NCBI GenBank assembly: GCA_964572255.1
Contig: CAZNEE010000002.1
Coordinates: 121,129 to 185,128, forward strand
Source: an uncultured Planctomycetia bacterium
GTDB taxonomy: Bacteria; Omnitrophota; Gorgyraeia; Tantalellales; Tantalellaceae
Reading direction: 5' to 3'
DNA length: 64,000 bases
The position numbers and the translations under genes were made by a program. Below, piece by piece: positions 5,316 through 59,068 of this stretch (position 1 is its first letter; the number at the start of each line of letters is the position of its first letter). The notes beneath the pieces are model-generated. The model searched no databases and had not been told where the DNA came from. It saw only the letters and a list, made by a program, of their open reading frames with translations.

Positions 5316-8300
5316 TTAAGCCGCTGCTCTGACTCCTAATTCCCTGTAAAATTCTTTCTTGAGGAGTTCTCTATCAATGGGCTCTGCTTTTGGCATGAAA
5401 GTAAATACCCTCGGGCTATCTTCATCAAACTCCAGCCCTATCTCGGGATAACTCTTCTTCAGTTCACTGATCAAGACTTCGAACGGTAAAACTTTATTAA
5501 AGGCAAGCTCTAAAGCCATGTTAATCATATCAACGATCCTTATGTAATTTTCTTCATTCCCATTCTCCGGCCGCTTATTGATCTGTTCAGGATCGATCCT
5601 CACCAAAAGCGCCCTGTCTCCCGTTTTAGGATCATGTAAAGGCTTGAACGCTTCTTCTTTTACTATATCCTCATGCCCTAAAACGATGATGTTCGAAAAG
5701 TTGACTTTTTTATTATCTGCTTCTTTCAGCAGCTGTCCGGCGAAATCATCCCCCTCTTTCCTGACAATATGGATATTTTTGATCCCGAGGCTTCCGGCGA
5801 TCCTGTATATCTCGCTTAAAAGCGGTTGTATTATATCGGCCTGTTCTTTTGGTATCCAGCTGGTCTCCAGCCCGATCATAATATTTTGTTCGTCATTTTT
5901 GACCCCCCCGCCAAGATCCCCATTTTTAACTTTATCGGCATAAAACCTGAGCATATCCATGAAAAGCATTGCCATCTCCTGAGCCCTGGTAAATTTGCCT
6001 TCTGTCCGCTTCCCTGCGGAAGGTTTATGTCTGATAAAATATAACGCGCTGTTATACACATGCTTGCTGTCCTTATAACTCGTTTCGACATCCATGATAT
6101 CGCCAGTGATCCCGCTCAATATTCTATATTTTCCGGCCGATCTGAGTATCTCGGCCACGGCGTCAATATCGCCCAGCTTTTCATCACGGGTTATGCACGG
6201 ATCATTCCATATCATCGCTATTCCATCATCATGGAGCATGACCGGCAATGCGCGGGCAAAGCGACTTAATGCGTCTCCCCCGATATCGCCGTCCCAATAG
6301 CTTGCAAGTTTTTTGTGCCAGGCGGGCACACTCTCTCCCGGCGAATCGATCAAGTTAGGCATGTTCCAGATGATCCTGTCGAAAACGCCGTCAAAAACAG
6401 GTTCTCCGTTTTCTGAAATTATATTATCATGGGTCACGGTCTCGATATCAAACCCGGCTATCTTAGCGGTCAGGCGAGTGTTTGCCGCTGCAAGCGGATT
6501 TATATCAACGGCATAGATCTTTCTGCCTGTTTTAAGATACGCTATCCAGCTGTCTATGCCCGAACCGGAACCCGCGATCAAGACCCTATGCCCCTTATCC
6601 AATCCTATATCATTCCACATAGCAGGGATTATCTTGGCATCAGAAACCGTCATTTCCGCCGGCGTATATACAGTGGGAAATACCGGGATAATGATCTTCT
6701 TTTTGCCTTCTTCTTCTTTAAAAATTCTTTCAAAATCCTGGTCGGATAATGTTTCCGGGGTAAAGGTCTGTATATCTATTTTTCCTGTCAGGGTATCAAC
6801 CCCGATATAATTATAGATATCTGTTTCCTGGCGGTTGAAATTTGAAATAAGCTGGCCTTGTCTTCTTCTCTCAGCGGCAAAAGAAAGCAGCAGCTTCTTG
6901 TCCGCATTCCTTCTTGTTATGAAATCTTTCCATTTCTGCGCGGCCTCAGGATCGGTCATATCGGGAAAAACAAAATTGTAAGGCGTAAGATCCAGATAAT
7001 AGATTTCATCCTGTGCGGGAGCGCCTTTGACAACAGGAAATATCCCTATTAAAAGACCCTGTTCATTATGTAAAAACTCGAATTCCCTTGTTTTCTCTCC
7101 GGCAAGTTCTCTATAAAGCACATCTAATCCGCGCGGAGTTCCGTACATCATAGATGTTTCGGGGATCCTTATCGTGCGAATGATGGTATTACTCCACCCT
7201 TGTCTTTCGGAAATTATACCGGCCTTATTGATCTCCAATGCCTGCAGGAACTCCCACGAAGCCATGTCTTTATAAAAAGCTGCGTCAGCCTCCTGCGCCT
7301 TGACCAATTTTGTTCCCGTTGCAACTGCTTCTTGTTTCTTGCCTGGAATGAAACGAACTTCAGATCTTATCTTTCCCTCGATATTGTCCAGTTCATCCAA
7401 AACATAATCACCAAAGATTTTTACTGCCTTTCCTTTTATGGGAACATCCGATACAACAAATGTACTGTCATCAAAAACTTTTATGAACTTATGAAAACGT
7501 TCTTTATTGTCAGTATCTTCGATATATACAGGAATTTTTTCCGCAGAATAAGCCTCTCCGACAACGGCTTCGAACGGTTTAAATCCCCTGTTTTTCCTTC
7601 TGAAATCAGGCCCTATATACTCATCTCCTTTCAGTTCAAAACCCAGATCTTCCACAACACTCACCAGGAAAGGATTCTGAACAAAAATGCCAAATTCTAT
7701 GTAGTAAGAACCGTTGTAAATAGCCCCCTGTTTCAGTCCGGACAACAGAACTTCCAGGAATGCCCGGGCGTACCCTCTATTCCTGTAAAGATTATCAACA
7801 AAAATACAATCGATTTCCGTGTCATTAAATCTGATATAACCAACAGGATCCCCATCCCCGCCGTAAAAATCCAGACTGCCATGATTCTCGGAAGACATGG
7901 GGAAATATTCGAAGAACAGTTTTTCATTATTGGGTGTAATAACATGCCCTGAGTAGCCTTCTTCTTCGAAAATGCTATTGCAGACTTCAGTTATTTCAAT
8001 AACCTCAGGATATTCCTCGGCAAAAGTCGCTGCTGTCAACCTTCTCTCTTTTAATGACCTCAAATAAGGCCCGACCATGATAGAACCAGTGTGATCGCCT
8101 TTCATCCAATAAGCGCCATCAATATAAGTAACAGGGGTATTATTCTCTAAAATAGCGACCCAATTATGCGTATAAGGCTTATCAAAGCCCCAATAATATC
8201 CTCCGACAACTTCCACTCGGCTGGGCGAATCCCCTCCCAATGGTAATCCATATTTCCTGGAAATGATCTCCGCCAGAGCTAAGGCGGAAATATAGCATTC

Positions 8301-11300
8301 TTTTACCGGGTATCCTTTTTTCACTTTTTGCCGCATAAGTTCCGTAAAACGATTTTCAATAGCTTTGAGATGCAAATACAAATTATCATCCGATGGCAGC
8401 ACTGAATGCGGATCTTGAACCTTGCCGTCACCGTAACCCGGAGGTCCGGGTTCGGATTTTAATTCGTTCTCTCCATCATACACCCTTATGCCCGAAGCCC
8501 AATCACTCTTATCGTACGGCCAAACTGTTACTTTCTTTCCTCCATGCCTAACTCCGATATAATATGGTTGCCCCATTAACGTTATGCTTCCATCTTTTCC
8601 GATCTTTCTTTCTGCAGGTATTGAGGGTTTTTTACGTACCACCTTTTTTCTCGGCTTTTTGACCATCTCATGCTTTTTACGTTTCTTTGTTCCTTTATTA
8701 TGGGAATTATAGCTCTCGATCAATCTTTCTACGGAATATTCTCCTGCAACTTCTTCCTCACTTTTTTCTTCCCCCTTCATCCTGTACCCAAGATGCGCGA
8801 CTTCATGGTTAAGCCATCTGGCATAAGAAACTAGATCATTTCTTCTGATCATTCCCAGAAATTCAAGAACTTTGCGCGGGATCAGCAGATTGCAGGAACG
8901 CGCAGCGCCATTTTCATCTCTCCAGGACCCGGGGTGAGTGATAAGTCTGAACGAACCTTTTTCCGGAAAAGAGATATTGCTTGTTTCTGCAAATTTATAA
9001 AGAACATCATAGAAATATTTCTCGGGGGGGCTATGTATATGGATCTCTTCTTCTATGCCCCTGCTTCTCATCTCGCTTAAGATATCTTGCCCTAATCCTT
9101 TTTCTGTTGAGATCTTATGATCTCTTTCAAATACATCCCAATAAACCCCCCATGTTTTATTGATAACGGCGTGCTGCTGGGCATTTAACACATACTGAAC
9201 CCATCTGCCGTCTTTTTTTACTAAAGCAATCGCGGGCGGATCATCGGAAGGAATGCCTTTTTTCTTATCCGATAACCTTGGCGATTCAGGCATTTTCCGT
9301 CCCCGGGAATAATTAAAACCTCTTCCATATCTGTCTCCGCTTCTTCTTTCTCCATCAATGTAAAACGTCAATTTCGGGCTGACTTCCTTGACTTTCACTG
9401 AGACAGCTTCACCTTCACTAAATCTTTTGCCTCCGCAAAGACTAAGGGGCATGAAACCTTTAACTTCTCCCTCATAAACAAGTTCATATCCCGCCAATGA
9501 ACCATCGCTCCTGCGGCGAGACTCTCTATTTACGAACACCTTAACTTCCTCTCCCGATCTCTCAGCTGCCTCCAATTCATACAATAGATCTCTTTTTCTT
9601 TCATTCGCCATCATCTGTCTTCGGCGAATAGAGAACCTGGGTTCGGGAATTATCCCCCTCCATTTACAATCGACGAGAACAACGTTCACTTTTCTGCCAA
9701 GCATATCATCAGGATTAGTTCCATAGGGGCATTCTCTCGAGCTAATGCGTCCTTTTATCTCCTTGAATTCAACCACGTAGTAGTCAAATTTGCCTCTATA
9801 ACTGTAATGATCTTCCACGATCTTGACCCTAAAAACTTTTTCAGGATCATCTTCCCCCTGCTTTATCTCTCTGATACCTAAATGATAATTAAAGACGGAT
9901 TTTGCTTTTTCGTCCAACTTGTCCAAAATAGCCTTTGATATTTTTTTATATTCATCTTCTTCTTTGCTGACCAAATAAGAAAACTCTGCGGGTTTTTCTA
10001 TTCTGCGCCTTGCATCAACAAACCTGTTCAAGTCCGCTTCTGCAATACAGTTTTCCGCTTTTCTTTTTGCTTTTGGCAAACCATGTTTTTTTAAATATAA
10101 AAAAGCCTCCAGGCTTGACAGCCTGCCTAAGCCGTCTATTTTCCCTTCAGCAGCCAACTTCATTCTTTCTTCGATCCTTTCATCTAAAAGGACTATTATC
10201 CTAATCTTTTCCCGGAAAAAAGCTTCCCTCTCTCCGAGCTTTAGGGCTTTCCATGCCCTATCGGAAAGTTTGAACTTATCACGTCTCCTGCTGTCGCTTT
10301 TCAGTAATTTACGTTCTTCCAAAAGGTCAATGACGTCTATAAGTTTGATCCGCTCATCATGAATCTTTTTCCTTACATGATCTCTCATTTCCCCTAAGAC
10401 ACGATCGGCTTCTTTCTTTGCATCTATTTCCGGCAATAATTCCGGGCGTTCATCCAAAACTTTATCGAGAAACACCGTAAAATGATCCGCCAGATCATCA
10501 TCACCCATGCTCCTAAGCTCTCCCAGGCGCCTGCGCATTTCATCAACCGCATAAGATGCTCTTTCAGGTTTCTCTTCACGTATAATCTCAAGGATATCAT
10601 TGAGCTCATCTCTCGTTCTTTCTCCCGAAGAATGAGTATCTTCACTTCCTTTATCCTTATCCGCGGGCTGGTCTGTGTGGGGCGTACCCGGGCCGAAACC
10701 GTCGGTCTTATCTTTATTGTACAAAACCTTAATGCTGAAATTTGGACTGCCCCCCTTTAAGGGGCCTGTCCTTCCGCTCAACATTATTTCTTTCACATCG
10801 GCGTTAAACTTTTCAGGAGCATCTCTCGGTATCCGCGGCTTGCCTCTTATTTCTATTAATACGTCTTCAACCGACTGAGCCACAACGCCGATTACCTTAT
10901 TCCCGATCTTAACGACCAGTTTTTCGTCTATTGTAATAACGGTGCCTTCCCTTAACTCTTTGACAAGCTCCAGTTCCTCTGTCCATTCATTACGTTCTAT
11001 CTTATATTTATTCTTTGTTCCTTCAACATGCTTTAAACGGAGATAAGCCAGCGGAAATACTGTTTCTATGTCTCTGATCTCGATCTCGCCCATCACATCA
11101 TAACTCCAGAAGCCTTCACCTGTCTTAGCGTCATTAATATCCTCGAAGCTTTGCCACTCCCGGCTTTTTTCGTAATTAAGAAGATCTCCGGAATAGAAAG
11201 TGACCTTTATTTCGTCAGCGAAATATTTTTTGAACACGTGTAGGTTATATAGCCAGGGTGTATCTATATAAATTTCATTGATCCCGTTTGTGACAGCAAA

Positions 11301-25881: not shown

Positions 25882-25904
25882 AGAAAAAAATATATCATGC
25901 TCAT

Positions 25905-26260
25905 CAAAGCAGATCTATAAGCCGGGTTCTGTAGGCGGAATTCACCGCCCGGCGATCATCCATCTGGGGCTTTCATTACTGAAAACCTCGTGCGGCCTAC
26001 CCGGAAGTTGTGACGAAGCTAGCCGCTTCGTTATCAGTCAATCCGCATGATTTTTCGGATTTTCCTGATTCCTCCCCTATTTGGCCTTGCTCCGCGTAGA
26101 GATTGCCGCGTTTCACTTCCGCATGCAAAAGCACGCTTACTCGTCTCTGTGGCTCTGATCCTCACCTTTTGGTGGACGGGCATTACCCGCTACGCTGCTA
26201 TATGGAGCCCGGACTTTCCTCCCCCTGCAAAAAGCAAAGAGCGATCACCCGATCTGCTTC
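25905..26260 (-). ncRNA. rnpB: RNase P RNA, bacterial type A
   Basis: The minus strand carries GGGGAGGAAAGUCCGGGCUCC (P4 5' strand), CGGAGCAAGGCCAAAUAGGGG and ACAGAACCCGGCUUAU (P4 3' strand). The P1 strands GAAGCAGAUC / GAUCUGCUU pair at the two ends. Confidence 0.85.
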
Positions 26261-27465: not shown

Positions 27466-27542
27466 TGGTGGGCGCAGGGGGACTCGAACCTCCGACCTCA
27501 TGCATGTGAGGCATGCGCTCTAACCAGCTGAGCTATGCGCCC
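27466..27542 (-). tRNA. tRNA-Val (anticodon CAC)
   Basis: Cloverleaf GGGCGCA-TAGCTCAGCTGGTTAGAGC-G-CATGC-CUCACAU-GCATG-...-TTCGAGT-...-TGCGCCC-A-CCA; 77 nt with CCA encoded. Confidence 0.8.
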
Positions 27543-27584: not shown

Positions 27585-27661
27585 TGGTGGGGGCACATGG
27601 ACTCGAACCATGAACCTACTGATTATGAGTCAGTTGCTCTAACCACTTGAGCTATGCCCCC
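27585..27661 (-). tRNA. tRNA-Met (anticodon CAT; elongator type, tRNA-Ile2 not excluded)
   Basis: GGGGGCA acceptor, anticodon loop CUCAUAA. The anticodon stem ACTGA/TCAGT lacks the three G-C pairs of initiator tRNA. Confidence 0.75.
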
Positions 27662-27698: not shown

Positions 27699-27787
27699 TT
27701 ATATTTGCAAGTAATAAAAAATAAGAAAAAATTTGACTTCTTTAGAAAATATGGTCCATTTTAAGAGAATATAAAGTTGTTCTTTCT

Positions 27788-27946
27788 AGCAGATTTTAAT
27801 CGTAAACTGTTCGCAAGAGCAGGACACAAAGCCAAAGGGGCTAAACAATGCTTTCAGCCAGCCGGCTGCCGATTGACACATCGTTAAAGTGTTGGCATAA
27901 GTATTGATCAGACCCAACCTTTCGATGGTTGGGTTTTTTGTTTTTT
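27788..27946 (+). promoter_or_regulatory. c-di-GMP-I (GEMM) riboswitch-like leader with intrinsic terminator, upstream of the first PEP-CTERM gene
   Basis: AAACUGUUC-GCAA-GAGCAGGACACAAAGCC...GGGGCUAAACAAUGC closely matches the Vibrio Vc2 aptamer (AAACCAUUC-GAAA-GAGUGGGACGCAAAGCC...GGCCUAAACCAUUGC). Followed by hairpin CCCAACC-UUUCGAU-GGUUGGG plus a U-tract. Confidence 0.7.
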
Positions 27947-28056
27947 ATAAGTAAAAAGTTTTTAAAAGGAGGTGATGAAAAATATTTCTTGCAAGTTTTT
28001 TTGCAGTTATATATAGGTAAGTTTTAAAAATCTAAGAAGAAAGTGAGGTGATAACG

Positions 28057-28659
28057 ATGAAGAAAATGTTGATCTTGATCTGTTTTGTATTAGCTATAGC
28101 GTTTATGGTAATACCATCGAAAGTTGAAGCTAGAACCATCGAAGATGATGAAGATATAGGCCCACCTCCTGGAACAGTACTCGAATATTGTGAGTGGTGG
28201 CCAAGTGAAACGGGTGACCCGGATTTTATAGATCTGAATTCTGGTGACAATTATTATGACCCTGAAACTGAAACTATCGTTTCAATGACAATCTCTGTTT
28301 GGGGAAGATCTAGCGATCAGCATGATGGTCAAGACAGCACAATTGAAGTATATATAGGCAGTACTGCTACTCCGGGGAGTCATTTGCAGCACGAGACCAT
28401 AACTCATGGCGATGAACTGGAGACAAAAACTATCACATTAAATGCTGCTGCTCTGGCCGATATCTCTGGAGACGGTAAAATAAACCTTAGATGGCACGGT
28501 CTTTCCGGAGGCGCAGGTGATCCTGACGGAGACACATTTGCTTTGGCTGGCTACCCTTCCTACGAAGCACATACCCCCGAACCGGCAACAATTATATCAC
28601 TACTTCTGGGCGGATTGGGAATGGCAGTAAAGAGGAAAAAGTTGTTCTTTAAGCAATAA
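28057..28659 (+). CDS. secreted PEP-CTERM sorting-signal protein
   Basis: GAGGTG sits 6 nt upstream of ATG at 28057. Signal peptide MKKMLILICFVLAIAFMVIPSKVEA, acidic mature region, and C-terminal TPEPATIISLLLGGLGMAVKRKK (PEP motif, hydrophobic helix, basic tail). Confidence 0.75.
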   Translation: MKKMLILICFVLAIAFMVIPSKVEARTIEDDEDIGPPPGTVLEYCEWWPSETGDPDFIDLNSGDNYYDPETETIVSMTISVWGRSSDQHDGQDSTIEVYIGSTATPGSHLQHETITHGDELETKTITLNAAALADISGDGKINLRWHGLSGGAGDPDGDTFALAGYPSYEAHTPEPATIISLLLGGLGMAVKRKKLFFKQ

Positions 28660-28707
28660 TTATATTTATTAAAAGAAATATTTAAAGGAAGGAGTTGTGA
28701 CAATAAA

Positions 28708-28741
28708 AAAGCGGCTTCCGATGGAAGCCGCTTTTTTATGT
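28708..28741. terminator. bidirectional intrinsic terminator hairpin (AAAAAGCGGCTTCC-GATG-GAAGCCGCTTTTTT)
   Basis: Perfect GC-rich stem flanked by an A-tract and a T-tract. Lies between the convergent PEP-CTERM gene and the small polylysine ORF. Confidence 0.7.
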
Positions 28742-28760: not shown

Positions 28761-28874
28761 TTACTTTTTCTTTCTCTTTTTCTTTGCAGCTTTTTTCTTT
28801 TTCTTTACAACTTTTTTCTTTTTCTTTGCTACTTTTTTCTTTGCAGCTTTTTTCTTTTTCTTCTTTACTACCAT
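28761..28874 (-). CDS. 37-aa polylysine micro-protein (MVVKKKKKKAAKKKVAKKKKKVVKKKKKAAKKKRKKK)
   Basis: Minus-strand ORF with strong RBS GAGGAGGGG 5 nt upstream of ATG. Built from a ~21-nt tandem nucleotide repeat and followed by the terminator at 28708-28741. Too short for the ORF track. Confidence 0.45.
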   Translation of the reverse strand: MVVKKKKKKAAKKKVAKKKKKVVKKKKKAAKKKRKKK

Positions 28875-42002: not shown

Positions 42003-42729
42003 AATCCAAAACAGAAATTAAAAACAGGCCTGCTGTATCGCTTTTTAAAACCCTCCATCCAAGCGATACATGCCTGCAATTTTTCCCGGAAGCGAGACTG
42101 ATCTCTTCCGGCGTAAAATCCCCTTCCGGCCCAACAAAAACAATGATCTTGCCGGACTTAAAATCCCCTACTGCTTTTTTCAGGGAAACAGTTTTCCCCG
42201 ATAAACACGCAAAAAGAGCAAGATCGTACCTCTCTATTTCTTCAATCGCTTTCTTGAACGGTGTGACCTCGCTTACCGCCGGTATATCGGCTCTCCCGGA
42301 TTGTTTCGCGCTTTCAATAGCAAGTTTTCTCCATCTTGAAACTTTTTTTTCTCCCCCGCCTTCGTCAGGCCTCACAATGGTTCTACCTGTAACAAGAGGG
42401 ACGATCCTTTTAACTCCCAATTCGGTAGCTTTTTCAACGATATAATCCATCTTGCCTTTTTTAGGAATCGCCTGAGCCAAAACTACTTCCGATGTTTTTC
42501 CTGAAGAAGGAGTTTCGATCTTTACTACTTCAACAGTGGCTTTTTTACTTTTTGGATCTATTTTGTTAATAAAACCGGTATATTCATTCCCGGTGCCGTC
42601 AAAAATAATTACCTTGTCGGAATCTTTCAATCTCATCACATCGATCGCATGATGGAATTCTTCTCCCTCTATAAGGATCTCATTTTTTTTTGTATTGATC
42701 TTCTCTTTTGAAACGTAGAATCTGCTCAT
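41986..42729 (-). CDS. rsmE: 16S rRNA (uracil1498-N3)-methyltransferase
   Basis: RFYVSKE...GEEFHHAIDVMRLK N-terminal PUA-like domain plus SPOUT fold. Confidence 0.8.
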   Translation of the reverse strand: MSRFYVSKEKINTKKNEILIEGEEFHHAIDVMRLKDSDKVIIFDGTGNEYTGFINKIDPKSKKATVEVVKIETPSSGKTSEVVLAQAIPKKGKMDYIVEKATELGVKRIVPLVTGRTIVRPDEGGGEKKVSRWRKLAIESAKQSGRADIPAVSEVTPFKKAIEEIERYDLALFACLSGKTVSLKKAVGDFKSGKIIVFVGPEGDFTPEEISLASGKNCRHVSLGWRVLKSDTAGLFLISVLDYEFNI

Positions 42730-44207
42730 TATTCTTTTTCACCAAAAACTTCAGCCGTAAAAATGTATATTTCACACCCTCCGGTTTTCCAGGCATCCAT
42801 TGGCATCCCGGCTTTATGCGCGCAAAGGCTATTCATGAACTCTTCCCTGGTCCATCCGGTTTCAGTAGCAACCTGTGGAAGATACACGCCGCTCCTCCAT
42901 CCCGTGCGTACCATCACCCCATGTTTACCGACTTCGATCCTTTCATAATCATCGATCCTTTCCATCGGAGAAAGCGCGGAGATCTCGATATCTATATCAT
43001 CCATTTCCTCAAGCCTGACAGGCGAAAATCTGGGATCTTCCACAGCAGCTGCGATCGCCATATCGCGTACAGCCAAGTAAAGAGGTCCTCTGGCAACCAT
43101 GTTGCCGATGCATCCTCTAAGCTGGCCGCCTTTATGCAGCGTAACAAAAGCTCCCATATCCTGCTTGAGGGCCTCATCATCAACTTTCACTGCCAGGGTT
43201 TTGCCTGTTTTGAGATGATGAATAATCGCATCTCTCGCGATCTTTAACAGTTCTTTTCTCTGCTGGTGGTTGAACATGCCGGTCTCCTTTTCCTGTAACT
43301 CGTGACCCGTATCTTGTGGTTTTCGTTTTATGAACGCCGCGCTGAGATATCCTACAACACTTTGCTTCATCCCGGAAGTATCGCCGGAATTTGCGTACTT
43401 AAATATTTGAACTTCATCGGCGCCGAGCTTCTGCGATGCAAGCATGGTCGCATAAACCGCACCAAACCCGCACATGAGTTCGTGACGTTTCCTCTCGCTC
43501 TCATCATACAATAGGTCCGGTTTGAATCTTTTTATATTGCTGATGGTCTCTTTATCCCTTCTATTCGCTTCATCGTAAGGCAAATAATGGCACATGTCCG
43601 TACTTCCGATCATGAGATAATCGTCTCTTCCTTTGACCGCATCATAAACGGCATCGGCAATTATGCGGCTGTTCTCTCTTGTCTGGTTCCCTATCGCAAG
43701 TAAAACCGCTTCAGCATCCTTAAAAGCCACCTGAATGAAAGGTGTTAACATCTCTACGGAATTTTCATCCGAAAAAGCCTCGGGAAGACTGAATATCTTT
43801 TCGCTCGAGGAAATAAGCTTTTTTGATATTTCCTTGTTAATTTTCAAAGAGCCCAACGGAGTCACAAAAGCGTCTTCAGTAAAAACAGATATCCCGTCAT
43901 AATATTTCCTATGCGAAAAACCCACTACGATAACAACTTTGGGCGACTGCGGCATGGCTGCTTTATATCCATAAGCTGCTACATGGCCTGAAAACCTGAG
44001 ACCCGCGTGAGGTGAAATGAAACCGATGATTTTTCCGTCAATCTTGGCGGGTGTTGCCGCTTCAAGATAATAGTTGATCTCCCGCCTCAAAACATCCGGA
44101 TCAGCTGAATACCATGTACCGGCAAGATCCGCTTTTTTCTCACTGGCTTGCGAACAAGAAAAGCTGAAAACAGTAATGAATATCACCAAAACAAAGCGTT
44201 TTAACAT
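42729..44207 (-). CDS. AmmeMemoRadiSam system fusion protein: AmrB (Memo-like) fused to AmrA (AMMECR1), with Sec signal peptide
   Basis: ISPHAGLRFSG and STDMCHY are Memo motifs. LRGCIGN marks the AMMECR1 core. N-terminus MLKRFVLVIFITVFSFSCSQA|SEK is a signal peptide. Confidence 0.8.
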   Translation of the reverse strand: MLKRFVLVIFITVFSFSCSQASEKKADLAGTWYSADPDVLRREINYYLEAATPAKIDGKIIGFISPHAGLRFSGHVAAYGYKAAMPQSPKVVIVVGFSHRKYYDGISVFTEDAFVTPLGSLKINKEISKKLISSSEKIFSLPEAFSDENSVEMLTPFIQVAFKDAEAVLLAIGNQTRENSRIIADAVYDAVKGRDDYLMIGSTDMCHYLPYDEANRRDKETISNIKRFKPDLLYDESERKRHELMCGFGAVYATMLASQKLGADEVQIFKYANSGDTSGMKQSVVGYLSAAFIKRKPQDTGHELQEKETGMFNHQQRKELLKIARDAIIHHLKTGKTLAVKVDDEALKQDMGAFVTLHKGGQLRGCIGNMVARGPLYLAVRDMAIAAAVEDPRFSPVRLEEMDDIDIEISALSPMERIDDYERIEVGKHGVMVRTGWRSGVYLPQVATETGWTREEFMNSLCAHKAGMPMDAWKTGGCEIYIFTAEVFGEKE

Positions 44208-46027: not shown

Positions 46028-46103
46028 TGGTGGAGCTGAGGGGGATCGAACCCCTGACCTTCTGATTGCGAACCAGACGCTCTTCCAGCTGAGCTACAGC
46101 CCC
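46028..46103 (-). tRNA. tRNA-Ala (anticodon CGC)
   Basis: GGGGCUG acceptor with the G3:U70 identity pair; anticodon loop UUCGCAA; CCA encoded. Confidence 0.85.
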
Positions 46104-52057: not shown

Positions 52058-52185
52058 GTTTTATGGGCTAGATAGCTTATGGGCTAAATATAGTATTATA
52101 TATAGGCTAATAATAACCTATATAACGACTATTTATAGTAGCAAATTACGGATTTTCGTTCAAGATAATTTTAATTTAGGTAGGC

Positions 52186-52229
52186 TAAAAGAAGAGAAAG
52201 GCCCATCATCCCATTGCCTGATGGGCCCT
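52186..52229 (-). terminator. intrinsic terminator downstream of the second PEP-CTERM gene
   Basis: On the minus strand: GGCCCAUCA-ggcaauggga-UGAUGGGCC followed by UUUCUCUUCUUUU. Confidence 0.55.
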
Positions 52230-52268
52230 TCTCATATTAAATCAGCATCTATAATATTGCCTTCTTCG

Positions 52269-52862
52269 TTAACTTGTAAACTTTTTTACTGCCGTTCCTA
52301 ATAAAGCAAGGCCTAACATCACCATGCTTGCGGGTTCCGGAGATCCATAAATACCTCGTGCGGCACCTCCCTCGTCACTAATTGCTGCCGCTCCGACCCC
52401 GAAATAATAGGGCGAACTGCCCGCTTCCGGTACGACAAATGTATCGAACCCTTCTTGTTTTCCGACCAAGCTCACAACATCAGAATCAACCAATGTTAAT
52501 GTGCTATCCATCAATACAAAAACAACTGCATCGCCGAACTGTTCGTTATTCGAGTACCATTTGTAATTGATTACATCCCCTACTGAAAAAGAGGTAGGTG
52601 CAACATTGAACACCCCTTCATTAACAGTGGTAATTTTAAATATCGCCATATGTTCCGTATGATCAGCTTCATCTGAATCTTCAGGTGACTTTTCAACAGA
52701 TACACTTGGTCCGTTAGGTGCCCAATTTGTCATGTCGCGCATTTCTAAAAGAATATTACTCAATCCGAGCTCCCACATATTATATGTCGCAGCTTCAGCA
52801 CAAATTGTTAACGCAAATAATAGTGCAATAAACAATATAAAAGCTAAACAACATTTCTTCAT
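52269..52862 (-). CDS. secreted PEP-CTERM sorting-signal protein, paralog 2
   Basis: Same RBS/start context as the 28057 gene (GAGGTG 6 nt upstream of ATG). Signal peptide MKKCCLAFILFIALLFALTICAEA. C-terminal SPEPASMVMLGLALLGTAVKK. Confidence 0.75.
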   Translation of the reverse strand: MKKCCLAFILFIALLFALTICAEAATYNMWELGLSNILLEMRDMTNWAPNGPSVSVEKSPEDSDEADHTEHMAIFKITTVNEGVFNVAPTSFSVGDVINYKWYSNNEQFGDAVVFVLMDSTLTLVDSDVVSLVGKQEGFDTFVVPEAGSSPYYFGVGAAAISDEGGAARGIYGSPEPASMVMLGLALLGTAVKKFTS

Positions 52863-52892
52863 CATTCTCACCTCACTTTCTTTTTAGATTTT

Positions 52893-53046
52893 AAAAAACA
52901 AAAACCCAACCATCGAAAGGTTGGGTTACTGATTTTCTCCAACACTTTAACGATGTGTTAATCGGCAGCCGGCTGGCTAATTTCTTTCCTAGCCCCTTTG
53001 GCTTTGTTGCCCCGTTCTTCCGAACGGTTTACGATTAAAATCTGTC
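52893..53046 (-). promoter_or_regulatory. c-di-GMP-I (GEMM) riboswitch-like leader with intrinsic terminator, copy 2
   Basis: Minus strand: AAACCGUUC-GGAA-GAACGGGGCAACAAAGCC...GGGGCUA..., then ACCCAACCUUUCGAUGGUUGGGUUUUUGUUUUUU. The P2 stem shows compensatory changes relative to copy 1. Confidence 0.7.
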
Positions 53047-53136
53047 AAAAAAAACACTAACTTTATAATCGTTTAAAGTATAGCATATCCTTCTAAGAAT
53101 GCAAGTTCTTATAAAAAAATAAGTTAACAGAATTTG

Positions 53137-56773: not shown

Positions 56774-57127
56774 ATGGAAAAGAAAAGGCTTTTGATCTGT
56801 GACGATGAGATCGGGATAAGAGAATCCCTTAAACTTATACTCGAAAGTGATTACGATCTGGACTTCGCGTCAAACGGGGATGAAGTTATGGAAAAAATAA
56901 AGAACAGCCGGTTCGACGGCATTCTTCTTGACGTAAAAATGCCGGAAAAAGACGGGCTGGAAACACTTCAGGAAATAAAACAGTTTTCACCGGAGATGAA
57001 GATCATTGTTGTCACCGGATACAAAACGGTTGAAGCGGCCTCGAAAGCGATAAAACTCGGCGCGATGGATTATATTACTAAACCATTTGCCGAAAAAGAG
57101 GTAAGAGAAAAAGTCTCAAAGATATAG
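56774..57127 (+). CDS. stand-alone response regulator receiver (CheY-like)
   Basis: LLICDDE...ILLDVKMPEKDGLE...IIVVTGY...K REC motifs. Confidence 0.8.
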   Translation: MEKKRLLICDDEIGIRESLKLILESDYDLDFASNGDEVMEKIKNSRFDGILLDVKMPEKDGLETLQEIKQFSPEMKIIVVTGYKTVEAASKAIKLGAMDYITKPFAEKEVREKVSKI

Positions 57128-57174
57128 ATATCCACCCTCCGGCATATTTCATGTTCCGATACCGGTAAGCTGAA

Positions 57175-58533
57175 TTATTCCTCTATTTTGCTGTTCAGAT
57201 TGAATCTTCCTTTACGGTAGGCCAGAAGAAAAGCGCTCACGACTATGGGGTCAAATTGCGTGCCCGCGGCATCCTTTATTATCTGGACAGCGACCTCGGA
57301 CATGCTCCTCTGCCTGTACGGCCTGTCGCTGGTTATCGCGTCAAACGTATCCGCCACGGCTATTATCCGGGCTATGAACGGTATATCTTCACTCTTCAGC
57401 CCGTCCGGATATCCGGTCCCGTCATACCTTTCATGATGCGCGCGTATCTCATCAGCTATGTTCCCGAGCTCCCTTATGGAATAAAGGATAGAAGAGCCCG
57501 TTGAAGGATGCTCCTTGACCCTCTCGTATTCTTCTTTTGTCAGCTGACCGTTCTTGTTCAGGATGCTGTCGGGAACGCCGACCTTGCCTACATCATGAAG
57601 AAGAGCCGATAAATGCAGTGTTTCTATGAAATTCTTATATTCGTTAGCCTCAGGGAGGTCTTTCAGTTCATTTGCCAGTACCAGCGAGTACTGGGTAACC
57701 CTCTCAGTATGTCCGTGCGTGTAAGGATCCCTTGAATCTATCGCGGCGGCAAGAGAGATCGAGGTCCTGATGAACACGTCATGTTCCTTCTCATAAAGGT
57801 TGTGTATCTCGTATATCTTGTCCTCGAGGTCCTGAATGAGCTGGGTGTTGGCAAGCGCCATGGCGGCGTCATTGGCCAGGGTCGTGAAAAAGCCTATCTC
57901 CTGCCTCGAATAAGTTTCTCCCGAAAGTTTTCTGCCGAGAAGGAATATTCCGCTCAGATCTTTCCCGCAATATACAGGCACGCATATATTCGCCTTCAAC
58001 AGCTCCATCTGCCTGAGCGCCCTTTTTACAAGCTCGGCGAGCGCGGGGCTCTTTACGATATGCTCGTTCTTGTCAAAAGAATCGATAAGTTTATCATAAT
58101 CAACAGCCTGGGTAAAAGATACCTTATAGTTAATGCTTTCGTTAAAAAAACGTATCAAGGGGTCCTTCAACGTAAGTTTTATAAAACCGACGGGTATCTT
58201 GATGCCTTCCGCGCCGACACTGTCAATAAGGGTAAAAGTATCTCCCGATTTGTTCCTTAAAAGCATTGCCGTATGAGTTACCTGGACCTGCTCGTCAATG
58301 CTCTTAGTGATCATCCTGATGAGCTTTTCGGGTTTTTTAATGCGCAGCATCCCGCGCGAAACGTTCTCGAGCACGACCTGGTAGTCACGTTCGGGCTTCG
58401 GCCTCTGGAGGACCTCATGGCTTTCTATAGCCGGGGGGACATCCTCCGAATGCCTGATCTTCTCTGCTATCCAGTCCTGCAATTTAAGCCAGTTAGTATT
58501 CTCTTCGGGCATTTTCTCTTCCGATCGCTTCAA
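57175..58533 (-). CDS. HD-GYP domain c-di-GMP phosphodiesterase with N-terminal GAF-like domain
   Basis: HGHTERV...LHDVGK...HHERYDGTGYP (HD and GYP signatures). Confidence 0.85.
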   Translation of the reverse strand: MKRSEEKMPEENTNWLKLQDWIAEKIRHSEDVPPAIESHEVLQRPKPERDYQVVLENVSRGMLRIKKPEKLIRMITKSIDEQVQVTHTAMLLRNKSGDTFTLIDSVGAEGIKIPVGFIKLTLKDPLIRFFNESINYKVSFTQAVDYDKLIDSFDKNEHIVKSPALAELVKRALRQMELLKANICVPVYCGKDLSGIFLLGRKLSGETYSRQEIGFFTTLANDAAMALANTQLIQDLEDKIYEIHNLYEKEHDVFIRTSISLAAAIDSRDPYTHGHTERVTQYSLVLANELKDLPEANEYKNFIETLHLSALLHDVGKVGVPDSILNKNGQLTKEEYERVKEHPSTGSSILYSIRELGNIADEIRAHHERYDGTGYPDGLKSEDIPFIARIIAVADTFDAITSDRPYRQRSMSEVAVQIIKDAAGTQFDPIVVSAFLLAYRKGRFNLNSKIEE

Positions 58534-58910
58534 GTGTTACTATTGATCCTGATATTATCCGCCGCGCTCAGAACTGTTCTTTCAAGATGGTCGAGTAAAA
58601 GCGGTTTTGTAATGTATTCTATAGCGCCTAATTTTTTGGTTTCTTCTATCTTGCCGGCATCTCTAACGCCGCTTACAATTATGACACTGCAATTATTCCC
58701 AGTTTTCCTTATCTCTTTCAATGTCTCGATGCCGTTCATGATCGGCATATTTATATCCAAAATAACTATTTCGGGATTCTCGGCCTCGACCAGCCGTATC
58801 GCCTCTTTCCCGTTATGGGCCATGAAGGTCTGAAAATCCCTTTCCCTGAAGAAAGTTTTCAGGAAATCACATATATCAACTTCGTCATCGACGATCAATA
58901 TCTTTATCAT
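58530..58910 (-). CDS. response regulator receiver domain protein
   Basis: MIKILIVDDEV...ILDINMPIMNG...VSGVRD. Start set at the ATG that overlaps the upstream stop (ATGA). Confidence 0.75.
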   Translation of the reverse strand: MIKILIVDDEVDICDFLKTFFRERDFQTFMAHNGKEAIRLVEAENPEIVILDINMPIMNGIETLKEIRKTGNNCSVIIVSGVRDAGKIEETKKLGAIEYITKPLLLDHLERTVLSAADNIRINSNT

Positions 58911-59068
58911 CTGTTCTCCTGATCCTCGATCCATTTGTCAATCGTTTCTCTCTTGAAACGCCATTTTGACCCTACTTTGAAGGCGGGAATTTTCCCCTCT
59001 TGAGCGTGCTTATAGATCGTAGCGTTTTTCATCTTAAGATATTCAGCTACTTCTTCTACCGTCATCAT
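58907..59068 (-). CDS. excisionase-family (AlpA/Xis-like, MerR superfamily) HTH DNA-binding protein, 53 aa
   Basis: MMTVEEVAEYLKMKNATIYKHAQEGKIPAFKVGSKWRFKRETIDKWIEDQENR fits the 'helix-turn-helix, excisionase family' pattern. Its stop overlaps the receiver gene start. Too short for the ORF track. Confidence 0.5.
   Translation of the reverse strand: MMTVEEVAEYLKMKNATIYKHAQEGKIPAFKVGSKWRFKRETIDKWIEDQENR

Follow-up and report, generated by a model that had tools for sequence, protein, structure and literature searches.

Within the GEMM-I class of riboswitches for cyclic di-GMP (c-di-GMP), gathered in the Rfam family RF01051 (c-di-GMP-I), ligand recognition has been worked out for Vc2 of Vibrio cholerae, in which G21-C46 and C22-G45 are paired, J2/3 consists of A47-A49, G14-C93 forms the apex of helix P1 and J1/2 ends in G20 (PMC3764141). 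Stacking on the ligand comes from the pairs G14-C93 and G21-C46, hydrogen bonds with it are formed by C17, A18, G19 and G20, and pseudo-pairs by G20 and C92 (PMC5049679, Table 1), with A47 intercalated between the ligand bases, C92 paired with G-beta and G20 reading the Hoogsteen face of G-alpha (PMC3764141, PMC5049679). Transcriptional ON switches of this class have been demonstrated experimentally in Bacillus thuringiensis (Bc3-5; PMC4759541), and c-di-GMP-I riboswitches have been annotated upstream of PEP-CTERM genes in Methylophaga, where transcript levels were mostly higher in biofilm (PMC12530212). Here, we describe two GEMM-I elements, copy 1 and copy 2, in a 64,000-nucleotide stretch of contig CAZNEE010000002.1 (positions 121,129 to 185,128; hereafter the window) from an uncultured member of the Candidatus Omnitrophota. 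We consider it moderately probable that each is a transcriptional ON riboswitch in the 5' leader of a gene that is transcribed singly and encodes a secreted, exosortase-sorted (PEP-CTERM) protein.

A scan of the whole 64-kb window against the 4227 families of Rfam 15 placed both copies well above the RF01051 gathering cut-off of 35 bits, with 48.3 bits (E=2.2e-6, model positions 1-87 of 87) for copy 2 and 58.7 bits (E=6.6e-9, full-length model) for copy 1. RF01051 was the best-scoring clan member for both in cmscan, a purpose-built covariance model raised the copy 2 aptamer to 82.9 bits, and neither a permissive E-value Rfam scan nor motif scans found a third GEMM-I copy in the window. The preliminary description had proposed a second GEMM-like copy at 52893-53046 on the minus strand and had named a search with RF01051 as a check; the curated threshold passed by both copies bears this out, and the range correctly spans aptamer, expression platform, terminator and U-tract. 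Read 5' to 3', this minus-strand segment is AGAUUUUAAUCGUAAAC-CGUUC-GGAA-GAACG-GGGCAACAAAGCCAAAGGGGCUAGGAAAGAAAUUAGCCAGCCGGCUGCCGAUUAACACAUCGUUAAAGUGUUGGAGAAAAUCAGUAACCCAACCUUUCGAUGGUUGGGUUUUUGUUUUUU. The parts of the fold are as follows.

52961-53043, minus strand: copy 2 aptamer with the GEMM-I/c-di-GMP-I fold, from the RF01051 match.
53012-53027, minus strand: copy 2 P2 hairpin CCGUUC-GGAA-GAACGG, read directly from the sequence, with its GNRA tetraloop at 53018-53021.
27791-27873, plus strand: copy 1 aptamer, from the RF01051 match, with P2 at 27807-27822 and the position-20 C at 27801.

By fold and curated score, the element is a member of GEMM-I/RF01051. Under the label "c-di-GMP riboswitch" the fold is thus certain and the ligand is probable, the ligand being less than certain because C replaces G20 and a canonical P1/J1-2 is missing from both copies, a departure at the ligand-binding junction that the preliminary description had overlooked.

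The P2 sequences quoted there (CCGUUC-GGAA-GAACGG in copy 2, CUGUUC-GCAA-GAGCAG in copy 1) are exact, and the GNRA class of the loop is kept as GGAA and GCAA, respectively. Two P2 pairs had been said to co-vary. The second pair, U-A to C-G, changes on both sides and is truly compensatory, whereas the fourth, U.G to U-A, is a one-sided change from wobble to Watson-Crick that is compatible with pairing and is not strict covariation. The flanking strands AAAC and ACAAAGCC are retained as described, but the strand between P2 and ACAAAGCC differs by one substitution and a 1-nt insertion (GGAC versus GGGCA); likewise, the terminator hairpin is identical at 21 of 21 positions, but the U-tracts (UUUUUUGUUUUUU versus UUUUUGUUUUUU) are one U apart. 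Covariation within one genome had been taken as direct evidence of a functional structure; the P2 hairpin is real, but a single compensatory pair in a two-sequence comparison carries little weight by itself, and the strength of the structural case comes from the covariance-model match and from covariation over 16 aptamers. When five canonical GEMM-I aptamers from public contigs were added to the two copies, RNAalifold returned P2 and P3 with compensatory changes in 13 of 21 pairs. Both window-specific P2 columns stayed paired with five and then with 14 extra homologues, so that enlarging the alignment did not expose the substitutions as non-compensatory. A covariance model built from the alignment with five added aptamers aligned 17 matches representing 16 distinct aptamers, in which 94.5% of cells were paired (75.3% in shuffles) and the covariation score reached 0.559 (0.216 in shuffles, with 0 of 500 shuffles as high). 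Six controls with slid partners all dropped to 0.04-0.10. Changes on both sides were seen in 12 pairs overall, and in five of the six pairs of P2. The fold of this two-hairpin element is real.

That the leaders hold no structured RNA and merely resemble one by chance, as part of an AT-rich intergenic repeat, is a notion to which we give practically no credence. Beyond the low complexity of the surrounding DNA, nothing speaks for it, and it is refuted by the two matches above the Rfam threshold (E of 2e-6 and 7e-9), their correct orientation upstream of genes, the terminators that follow them and the strong covariation.

Aligning the two leaders revealed a bimodal pattern of conservation, given here as identical positions between copies.

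5' tail and J1/2: 12 of 12.
Proximal P3: 24 of 24.
Tail GCC: 3 of 3.
Antiterminator strand: 18 of 18.
Terminator: 21 of 21.
Distal P3: 4 of 12.
Antiterminator loop: 4 of 17.

All four helix substitutions between the leaders keep pairing, the DNA upstream is clearly less conserved than the leader itself, and the coding regions align at chance level. Because the junctions and switching strands are identical while two loops are randomised and the cargo is unrelated, this pattern points to long divergence under purifying selection and not to recent duplication. The two copies can thus be read as a natural mutational-saturation experiment, in which the surviving positions mark the functional nucleotides of both the aptamer and a three-tier platform, the terminator loop included.

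Where the copies depart from Vc2 is the junction that binds the ligand, of which the copy 2 parts (and the copy 1 strands for comparison) are listed here.

53033-53038, minus strand: UUAAUC, the J1/2 equivalent, doubling as 5' strand of P1', a putative alternative closing helix; 53033 is the C in the place of Vc2 G20.
53003-53005, minus strand: J2/3 AAA, the equivalents of A47-A49, from the cmscan alignment; invariant in the extended aptamer alignments.
52964-52966, minus strand: 3' tail GCC, with 52965 equivalent to C92 and 52964 to C93, the latter without a G partner.
52958-52963, minus strand: 3' strand GAUUAA of P1', overlapping the anti-antiterminator strand CCGAUUAAC (52957-52965).
27796-27801 and 27871-27876, plus strand: the two P1' strands of copy 1, from duplex analysis.

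Vc2 G20 corresponds to RF01051 model position 11, the unpaired G preceding the GC of GGCAAAC. Both copies read AAUC|GUAAAC here, placing a C at the G20 position (53033 and 27801) with full posterior probability in the cmscan alignment, and their signature at the canonical site is therefore C/A/C in place of G20/A47/C92. In 14 other Rfam-verified aptamers the position was G in 12, A in two and C in none, a small sample in which zero sets an upper bound of about 20% for C. A viral collection was also scanned with one canonical core pattern in which only the nucleotide at position 20 was varied, with the following outcome.

G at position 20: 9 matches, 6 Rfam-verified loci.
A at position 20: 5 matches, 2 Rfam-verified loci.
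C at position 20: 2 matches, none verified, both chance matches inside coding sequence.
T at position 20: 0 matches, none verified.

Every other nucleotide of the contact and tertiary set listed for Vc2 (PMC3764141) is kept in both copies, namely A23/A25, the G and A of the GNRA loop, G42, C44, A47-A49, G83 and C92, and the cmscan alignments show J2/3 AAA and the tail gCC with C92 in each. The P2 internal-loop and P3-bulge pattern GUAAAC...G(A/G)C...AG is likewise present in both, with a 1-nt insertion after C44 in copy 2. The distal P3 tetraloop receptor of the type 1 architecture is absent, with non-canonical pairs flagged there by cmscan in both copies. Receptor-less "type 2" members were reportedly described by Weinberg et al. 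2007, such that a tetraloop receptor is said not to be required.

The second difference concerns P1 and J1/2. In the canonical aptamers, traced by eye, P1 is closed by the second tail C together with an upstream nucleotide, usually G, and J1/2 is A-rich and 5-7 nt long. Both copies are without an upstream G to pair with that C (52964 in copy 2, 27870 in copy 1). Instead, the J1/2-equivalent UUAAUC is complementary to the GAUUAA (copy 2) or GAUUGA (copy 1) that directly follows the tail GCC, and this helix P1' is present in the minimum-free-energy fold of the copy 2 aptamer, with a predicted free energy (dG) of -3.0 for the duplex of 53033-53038 with 52958-52963. A canonical P1 upstream of UUUUAAUC was also sought and set aside, as merely 2-3 scattered pairs are possible. 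An alternative alignment, equating C11-G12 with Vc2 C13-G14 and giving a 7-bp helix UUAAUCG/CGAUUAA, has the appeal of the canonical CG/CG closing step; it was not preferred for the main model, since G12 would be used twice (also as G21) and the conserved lower P2 would be lost.

Taken together, C20 and the missing J1/2 linker probably change ligand affinity or the geometry of recognition. We put forward only tentatively that the two copies represent a GEMM-I binding-junction variant (C20/A47/C92) with a helix strand in the place of J1/2 and a second tail C without a partner inside the RNA, and that the ligand would be read unlike in any solved GEMM-I structure, perhaps through Watson-Crick pairs with both tail cytosines or through a Hoogsteen contact of C or C+. 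Its specificity may have shifted to 3',3'-cyclic GMP-AMP (3',3'-cGAMP), may be dual, or may lie with another guanine nucleotide signal in Omnitrophota.

An explicit form of the latter idea, to which we give slightly less weight again, keeps the fold and the ON platform and changes the ligand: C20 would read the Hoogsteen face of an adenine in 3',3'-cGAMP, as GEMM-Ib does, or that of guanine if protonated, or the junction without J1/2 would bind a different, smaller guanine-containing ligand by means of the two unpaired tail Cs. With N4-H and N3, C has the same donor/acceptor order as A with N6-H and N1, and by analogy with A20 it could read adenine when neutral and guanine when protonated; A20 reads G only when protonated, and G20A alone distinguishes the cGAMP sensors (PMC6140456). 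Rfam already separates families by changes at positions 20/47/92 (c-di-GMP-I-GGC was met in our scans), and "snuggler" variants have been called widespread by Breaker's group (PMC7266159). The replacement of G20 by C in both copies, within a 5' tail that is fully identical under otherwise saturated divergence, also fits a changed ligand, as do the lack of C in the 14 other verified aptamers and the mere chance matches to the C core pattern in the viral collection. Conversely, G20 mutants reportedly keep c-di-GMP affinity in the nanomolar range (Smith et al. 2010), C92, A47 and all else are canonical, and c-di-GMP signalling in this genome is evident from its PilZ and HD-GYP genes, with no cGAMP synthase in the 84 kb examined. 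In addition, the PEP-CTERM context matches that of ordinary c-di-GMP-I riboswitches (PMC12530212).

The expression platform follows each aptamer in the same order, i.e., an identical 20-nt segment ACACAUCGUUAAAGUGUUGG, a variable spacer, an identical terminator, a conserved block and the ATG.

52939-52954, minus strand: copy 2 antiterminator 5' strand AUCG-uu-AAAG-u-GUUGG, with its partner at 52912-52924.
52893-52927, minus strand: copy 2 intrinsic terminator of 9 bp, with the stem at 52903-52927 (AACCCAACC-UUUCGAU-GGUUGGGUU) and the U-tract UUUUUGUUUUUU running to 52893.
27880-27946, plus strand: copy 1 platform, with the antiterminator strand at 27880-27895, the terminator at 27910-27936 and the U-tract to 27946.

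Both intrinsic terminators were recovered independently by a terminator scan, on the sense strand between aptamer and gene. The hairpin CCCAACC-UUUCGAU-GGUUGGG before the U-tract is the same in both copies, with 9-10 bp, 5 GC pairs and a 7-nt loop, followed by UUUUU(U)GUUUUUU. For either copy the same three structures, of which only one can form at a time, can be drawn: besides the terminator, an antiterminator of 13-14 bp in which AUCG-uu-AAAG-u-GUUGG pairs with CCAAC-CUUU-CGAU (the terminator 5' arm and loop), and an anti-antiterminator made by the tail GCCGAUU(A/G)AC together with GUUA...GUUGG(C), for which the predicted energy is -4.3 (copy 2) or -8.2 (copy 1) kcal/mol. Before the terminator 3' arm is made, the antiterminator has a dG of -8.9 (copy 2) or -7.9 (copy 1) kcal/mol, and the dG of -10.5 for the copy 2 duplex is reached by 0.15% of dinucleotide shuffles. 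In the switching strand, the copies differ solely by an A versus a G opposite a U, so that neither of the alternative helices loses a pair. Both copies have the same terminator loop, UUUCGAU, and its pairing in the antiterminator is the only explanation we can offer for this invariance.

The antiterminator strand lies wholly downstream of the aptamer, so that the aptamer would act only through competition by its own 3' tail. In the ligand-free state, this tail (GCCGAUUAAC) would pair with GUUAA..GUUGG and occupy the antiterminator strand, whereupon the CCCAACC/GGUUGGG terminator would form and transcription would end within the U-tract. Once a ligand is bound, most likely c-di-GMP, the binding pocket and the closing helix UUAAUC/GAUUAA would retain the tail, and the freed strand AUCGUUAAAGUGUUGG would pair with the emerging CCAACCUUUCGAU (terminator 5' arm plus loop), blocking the terminator so that the gene is transcribed. 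As the closed, ligand-bound aptamer would withdraw the tail and let the antiterminator form, we infer that ligand binding leads to read-through and that the element is an ON switch. At high c-di-GMP, that is, in the sessile or biofilm state, matrix or surface proteins would thus be induced.

An element that is a genuine c-di-GMP riboswitch with the opposite sign, in which the ligand captures J1/2 and C92, frees GAUUAA from P1' and leaves the antiterminator sequestered so that transcription terminates, seems improbable to us. It draws on Vc2, where the J1/2 residues C17-G20 contact the ligand (PMC5049679); if UUAAUC must likewise be single-stranded, P1' would be the ligand-free helix. However, the ligand would then destabilise the helix that closes the junction, contrary to all the P1-regulated riboswitches that PMC5049679 reviews. 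Moreover, C92 lies within the anti-antiterminator strand, so ligand should weaken that hairpin, and physiologically c-di-GMP would be expected to induce matrix proteins.

Several points weigh against a c-di-GMP-responsive ON switch. P1' is reached by 2% of shuffles in copy 2 and by 12% in copy 1, marginally above chance, and the anti-antiterminator is not significant by itself in the shuffle test (0.28 and 0.13). If P1' stands for P1, our model has no linker to span the three stacked layers of Vc2 (G-beta/C92, A47 and G-alpha/G20), and if the six J1/2 nucleotides are single-stranded as in Vc2, it has no P1. With C at the G20 position, no canonical P1/J1-2 and no such linker, the canonical binding geometry cannot be assumed. 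Even when the aptamer is closed, the terminator is thermodynamically preferred to the antiterminator (-16.5 versus -11.8 and -18.4 versus -12.8 kcal/mol), so that the terminator is the thermodynamic ground state and the ON state must be kinetic. Kinetic control is usual for transcriptional riboswitches. The predicted platform helices, finally, rest on two sequences from one species, and the scans made turned up no relatives of the subfamily. A pattern scan of genome contigs gave six matches, of which two were real GEMM-I elements, both with the canonical G20, and the same kind of scan on metagenome contigs gave three, two of them real and both canonical; a viral-contig scan with the C20 junction and a blastn search against plasmids and phages gave no matches, and no further copies lie within 10 kb on either side of the window. 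A strain variant carries an identical leader, and the window DNA belongs to the 498-kb ENA metagenomic contig ERZ27256770:k141_130128 and also occurs in Logan and JGI samples.

Some of the same observations would suit a ligand-blind relic, in which the junction has been lost and the leader has become a constitutive attenuator or one controlled by a protein or small RNA, the likeness of the copies then stemming from gene conversion or cassette copying. No canonical P1/J1-2 is present, distal P3 with its tetraloop-receptor region has degenerated (4 of 12 between copies), the terminator is always the ground state, and the copy 2 cassette has moved, being an insertion relative to related genomes (see below). 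We nevertheless consider a relic unlikely. Decay would be expected at A47-A49, C92, C44/G83 and the GNRA loop, yet these and the other contact and tertiary nucleotides are intact in both copies while loops, promoter-distal DNA and coding sequence are randomised, and P2 carries a compensatory change between the copies. With all contact nucleotides other than G20 kept and the 5' tail invariant, decay of the aptamer seems unlikely.

Under the reading as an ON riboswitch, the regulated units comprise the following elements around the two aptamers.

53060-53067, minus strand (copy 2) and 27770-27777, plus strand (copy 1): TATAAAGT box, a candidate -10 element, from the leader alignment.
52868-52890, minus strand: copy 2 block before and including the ribosome-binding site, AAAAUCUAAAAAGAAAGUGAGGUGA, from the leader alignment and a motif scan, with the Shine-Dalgarno sequence GAGGUGA at 52868-52874.
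52269-52862, minus strand: copy 2 regulated gene, a 197-amino-acid orphan with the signal peptide MKKCCLAFILFIALLFALTICAEA and a C-terminal PEP-CTERM anchor.
52189-52238, minus strand: hairpin after the copy 2 gene, an inverted repeat with 20-nt arms (85% complementary) and a 10-nt loop.
28057-28659, plus strand: copy 1 regulated gene, a 200-amino-acid orphan with a signal peptide and a PEP-CTERM anchor.
28703-28739: hairpin after the copy 1 gene, with 17-bp perfect arms.

Each cargo protein passes just one of the two curated PEP-CTERM thresholds, protein 1 with 24.3 bits for TIGR02595 (cut-off 16) and protein 2 with 20.8 bits for PF07589 (cut-off 20.7), the latter protein reaching 14.3 bits for TIGR02595. 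Both nonetheless have an N-terminal Sec-type signal peptide and a C-terminal PEP motif, transmembrane helix and basic cluster (TPEPATIISLLLGGLGMAVKRKK and SPEPASMVMLGLALLGTAVKK). Pairwise comparison showed the two proteins to be unrelated outside the shared anchor, and no homologue of either but itself was found among 5.8 billion proteins. No exosortase (EpsH/Xrt) is encoded in the ~84 kb covered by the window and its flanks. The hairpins after the genes are probably bidirectional terminators missed by the simple terminator scan, that at 52189-52238 being the likely end of the copy 2 transcription unit; with a strong hairpin ending each gene, both cassettes stand as self-contained units. The copy 1 gene is followed downstream by a T-rich tandem repeat (28771-28869, 21-nt period, ~3.4-5 copies), of which the window and the ENA contig have different numbers of copies and in which the strain variant carries a single-nucleotide polymorphism.

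In both copies, the conserved leader begins ~17-20 nt downstream of the TATAAAGT box. A promoter scan found no sigma-70 -35/-10 consensus upstream of either leader in the sense orientation, and the box may belong to a non-canonical type of Omnitrophota promoter. Both leaders share the conserved block AAAAUCUAAnAAGAAAGUGAGGUGA with its Shine-Dalgarno sequence. The leader 5' end AGAUUUUAA is complementary to UUAAAAUCU just upstream of the ribosome-binding site (53035-53043 with 52885-52893, 9 bp and perfect, in copy 2; 27791-27799 with ~28022-28031, bulged, in copy 1); this long-range pairing is not significant (0.05 and 0.56 in shuffles), so that a second, translational layer of control, though conceivable, lacks support. 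The copy 1 leader further contains a ~75-nt insert (27947-28021) between the U-tract and the conserved ribosome-binding-site block, which holds AGGAGG and a 13-codon mini open reading frame (27975-28016, MKNISCKFFCSYI) resembling the true ribosome-binding site and start region. This may be what is left of a former gene start, or else a leader peptide.

The two cassettes are inserted 25 kb apart among housekeeping genes, and the copy 1 gene alone lies on the plus strand within a series of housekeeping genes on the minus strand. The two closest relatives with uvrA kept upstream have the TPR-ExbB-ExbD genes directly after it or after one intervening CBS gene, with no GEMM-I element at these loci; the nearest homologues of the neighbouring TPR protein, from Omnitrophota, are 42-45% identical. 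Because uvrA and the TPR-ExbBD genes are adjacent in these relatives and lack GEMM-I, gene order indicates that the copy 2 cassette (~52058-53136, with promoter, riboswitch, PEP-CTERM gene and terminal hairpin) is an insertion. It lies between uvrA and an operon of TPR-ExbB-ExbD-TonB-like type.

Three small PilZ-domain genes lie within 3 kb just beyond the left end of the window, and the organism thus has c-di-GMP protein receptors besides its riboswitches. A homologue of HD-GYP-type phosphodiesterases is encoded at 57175-58533 on the minus strand, ~4 kb from copy 2. Together with flanking genes for two single-domain response regulators and a cupin-HTH regulator it makes up a block (56774-58934) that is syntenic beside uvrA in relatives. 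No GGDEF gene or cGAMP synthase gene is found in the window. Judging from the PilZ genes and the HD-GYP homologue, the organism uses c-di-GMP, and by this gene complement and the PEP-CTERM context c-di-GMP is the most likely ligand. Elsewhere in the window, RNase P RNA class A (25902-26260, minus strand, 216.6 bits) and three minus-strand tRNA genes (27469-27542, 27588-27661 and 46031-46103) were annotated, copy 1 adjoining two of the latter. A giant open reading frame (5316-16619, minus strand, 3767 amino acids) has pentapeptide-repeat Pfam matches, AmmeMemoRadiSam system proteins B and A are fused in a single 492-amino-acid frame (42729-44207, minus strand), and a sub-threshold mir-BART17 match (19001-19093, minus strand, intergenic, 37.7 bits, E=7.6e-4) is presumably just a stable hairpin.

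As a riboswitch instance the locus is ordinary, GEMM-I being among the commonest classes; the class is known, and the binding-junction variant appears to be undescribed. For Omnitrophota, a candidate phylum in which experimental genetics hardly exists, it offers a direct, testable link from a cyclic-dinucleotide signal to surface proteins sorted by exosortase. At the junction, G20 and all of the P1/J1-2 module have given way to something else in an otherwise retained pocket, and GEMM-Ib demonstrates that a single change here can retarget the aptamer. An RNA of ~100 nt is therefore an inexpensive candidate for a new mode of c-di-GMP recognition or a new ligand.

Compared with Vc2 (PDB 3IRW), the RF01051 prototype, both copies share P2 with a GNRA tetraloop, the AAA/GAC internal loop and then P3, as well as J2/3 AAA, the 3' tail gCC with C92 and the location in a 5' leader. 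They differ in having C for G20, no closing pair of the G14-C93 type and no 5-7-nt A-rich J1/2; here, six J1/2 nucleotides are complementary to the tail, and the distal P3/tetraloop-receptor region is degenerate. The GEMM-Ib riboswitches for 3',3'-cGAMP (Geobacter Gs1761 and Gm0970, with A20) have the same fold and differ from the canonical form at the same nucleotide, and A20 and C20 would share the donor-acceptor pattern of the Watson-Crick edge (building on PMC6140456). In contrast to these, the window copies have a pyrimidine and not A20, PEP-CTERM and not exoelectrogenesis genes, and another P1/J1-2 architecture. The c-di-GMP-I-GGC family (RF03167) is a GEMM-I fold set apart by positions 20/47/92 departing from G/A/C, but the window copies carry A and not G at position 47. 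A further family, c-di-GMP-I-UAU, is said to have been defined by Weinberg et al. 2017, and the C/A/C signature of the window does not match it.

As to the expression platform, Bc3-Bc5 (PMC4759541) likewise consist of a GEMM-I aptamer followed by an intrinsic terminator, and there c-di-GMP turns transcription on. In Bc4 the terminator contains 3' nucleotides of the aptamer in a two-state arrangement, whereas here a self-contained terminator is combined with an antiterminator and an anti-antiterminator in three tiers. The pairing of regulator and cargo recurs in Ribo4-7 of Methylophaga nitratireducenticrescens GP59, which precede PEP-CTERM/VPLPA-CTERM genes and also occur in several copies per genome (PMC12530212). 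Those riboswitches belong to a gammaproteobacterium and are clustered within 18 kb by EPS genes, whereas the copies described here belong to a member of the Omnitrophota and stand 25 kb apart among housekeeping genes.

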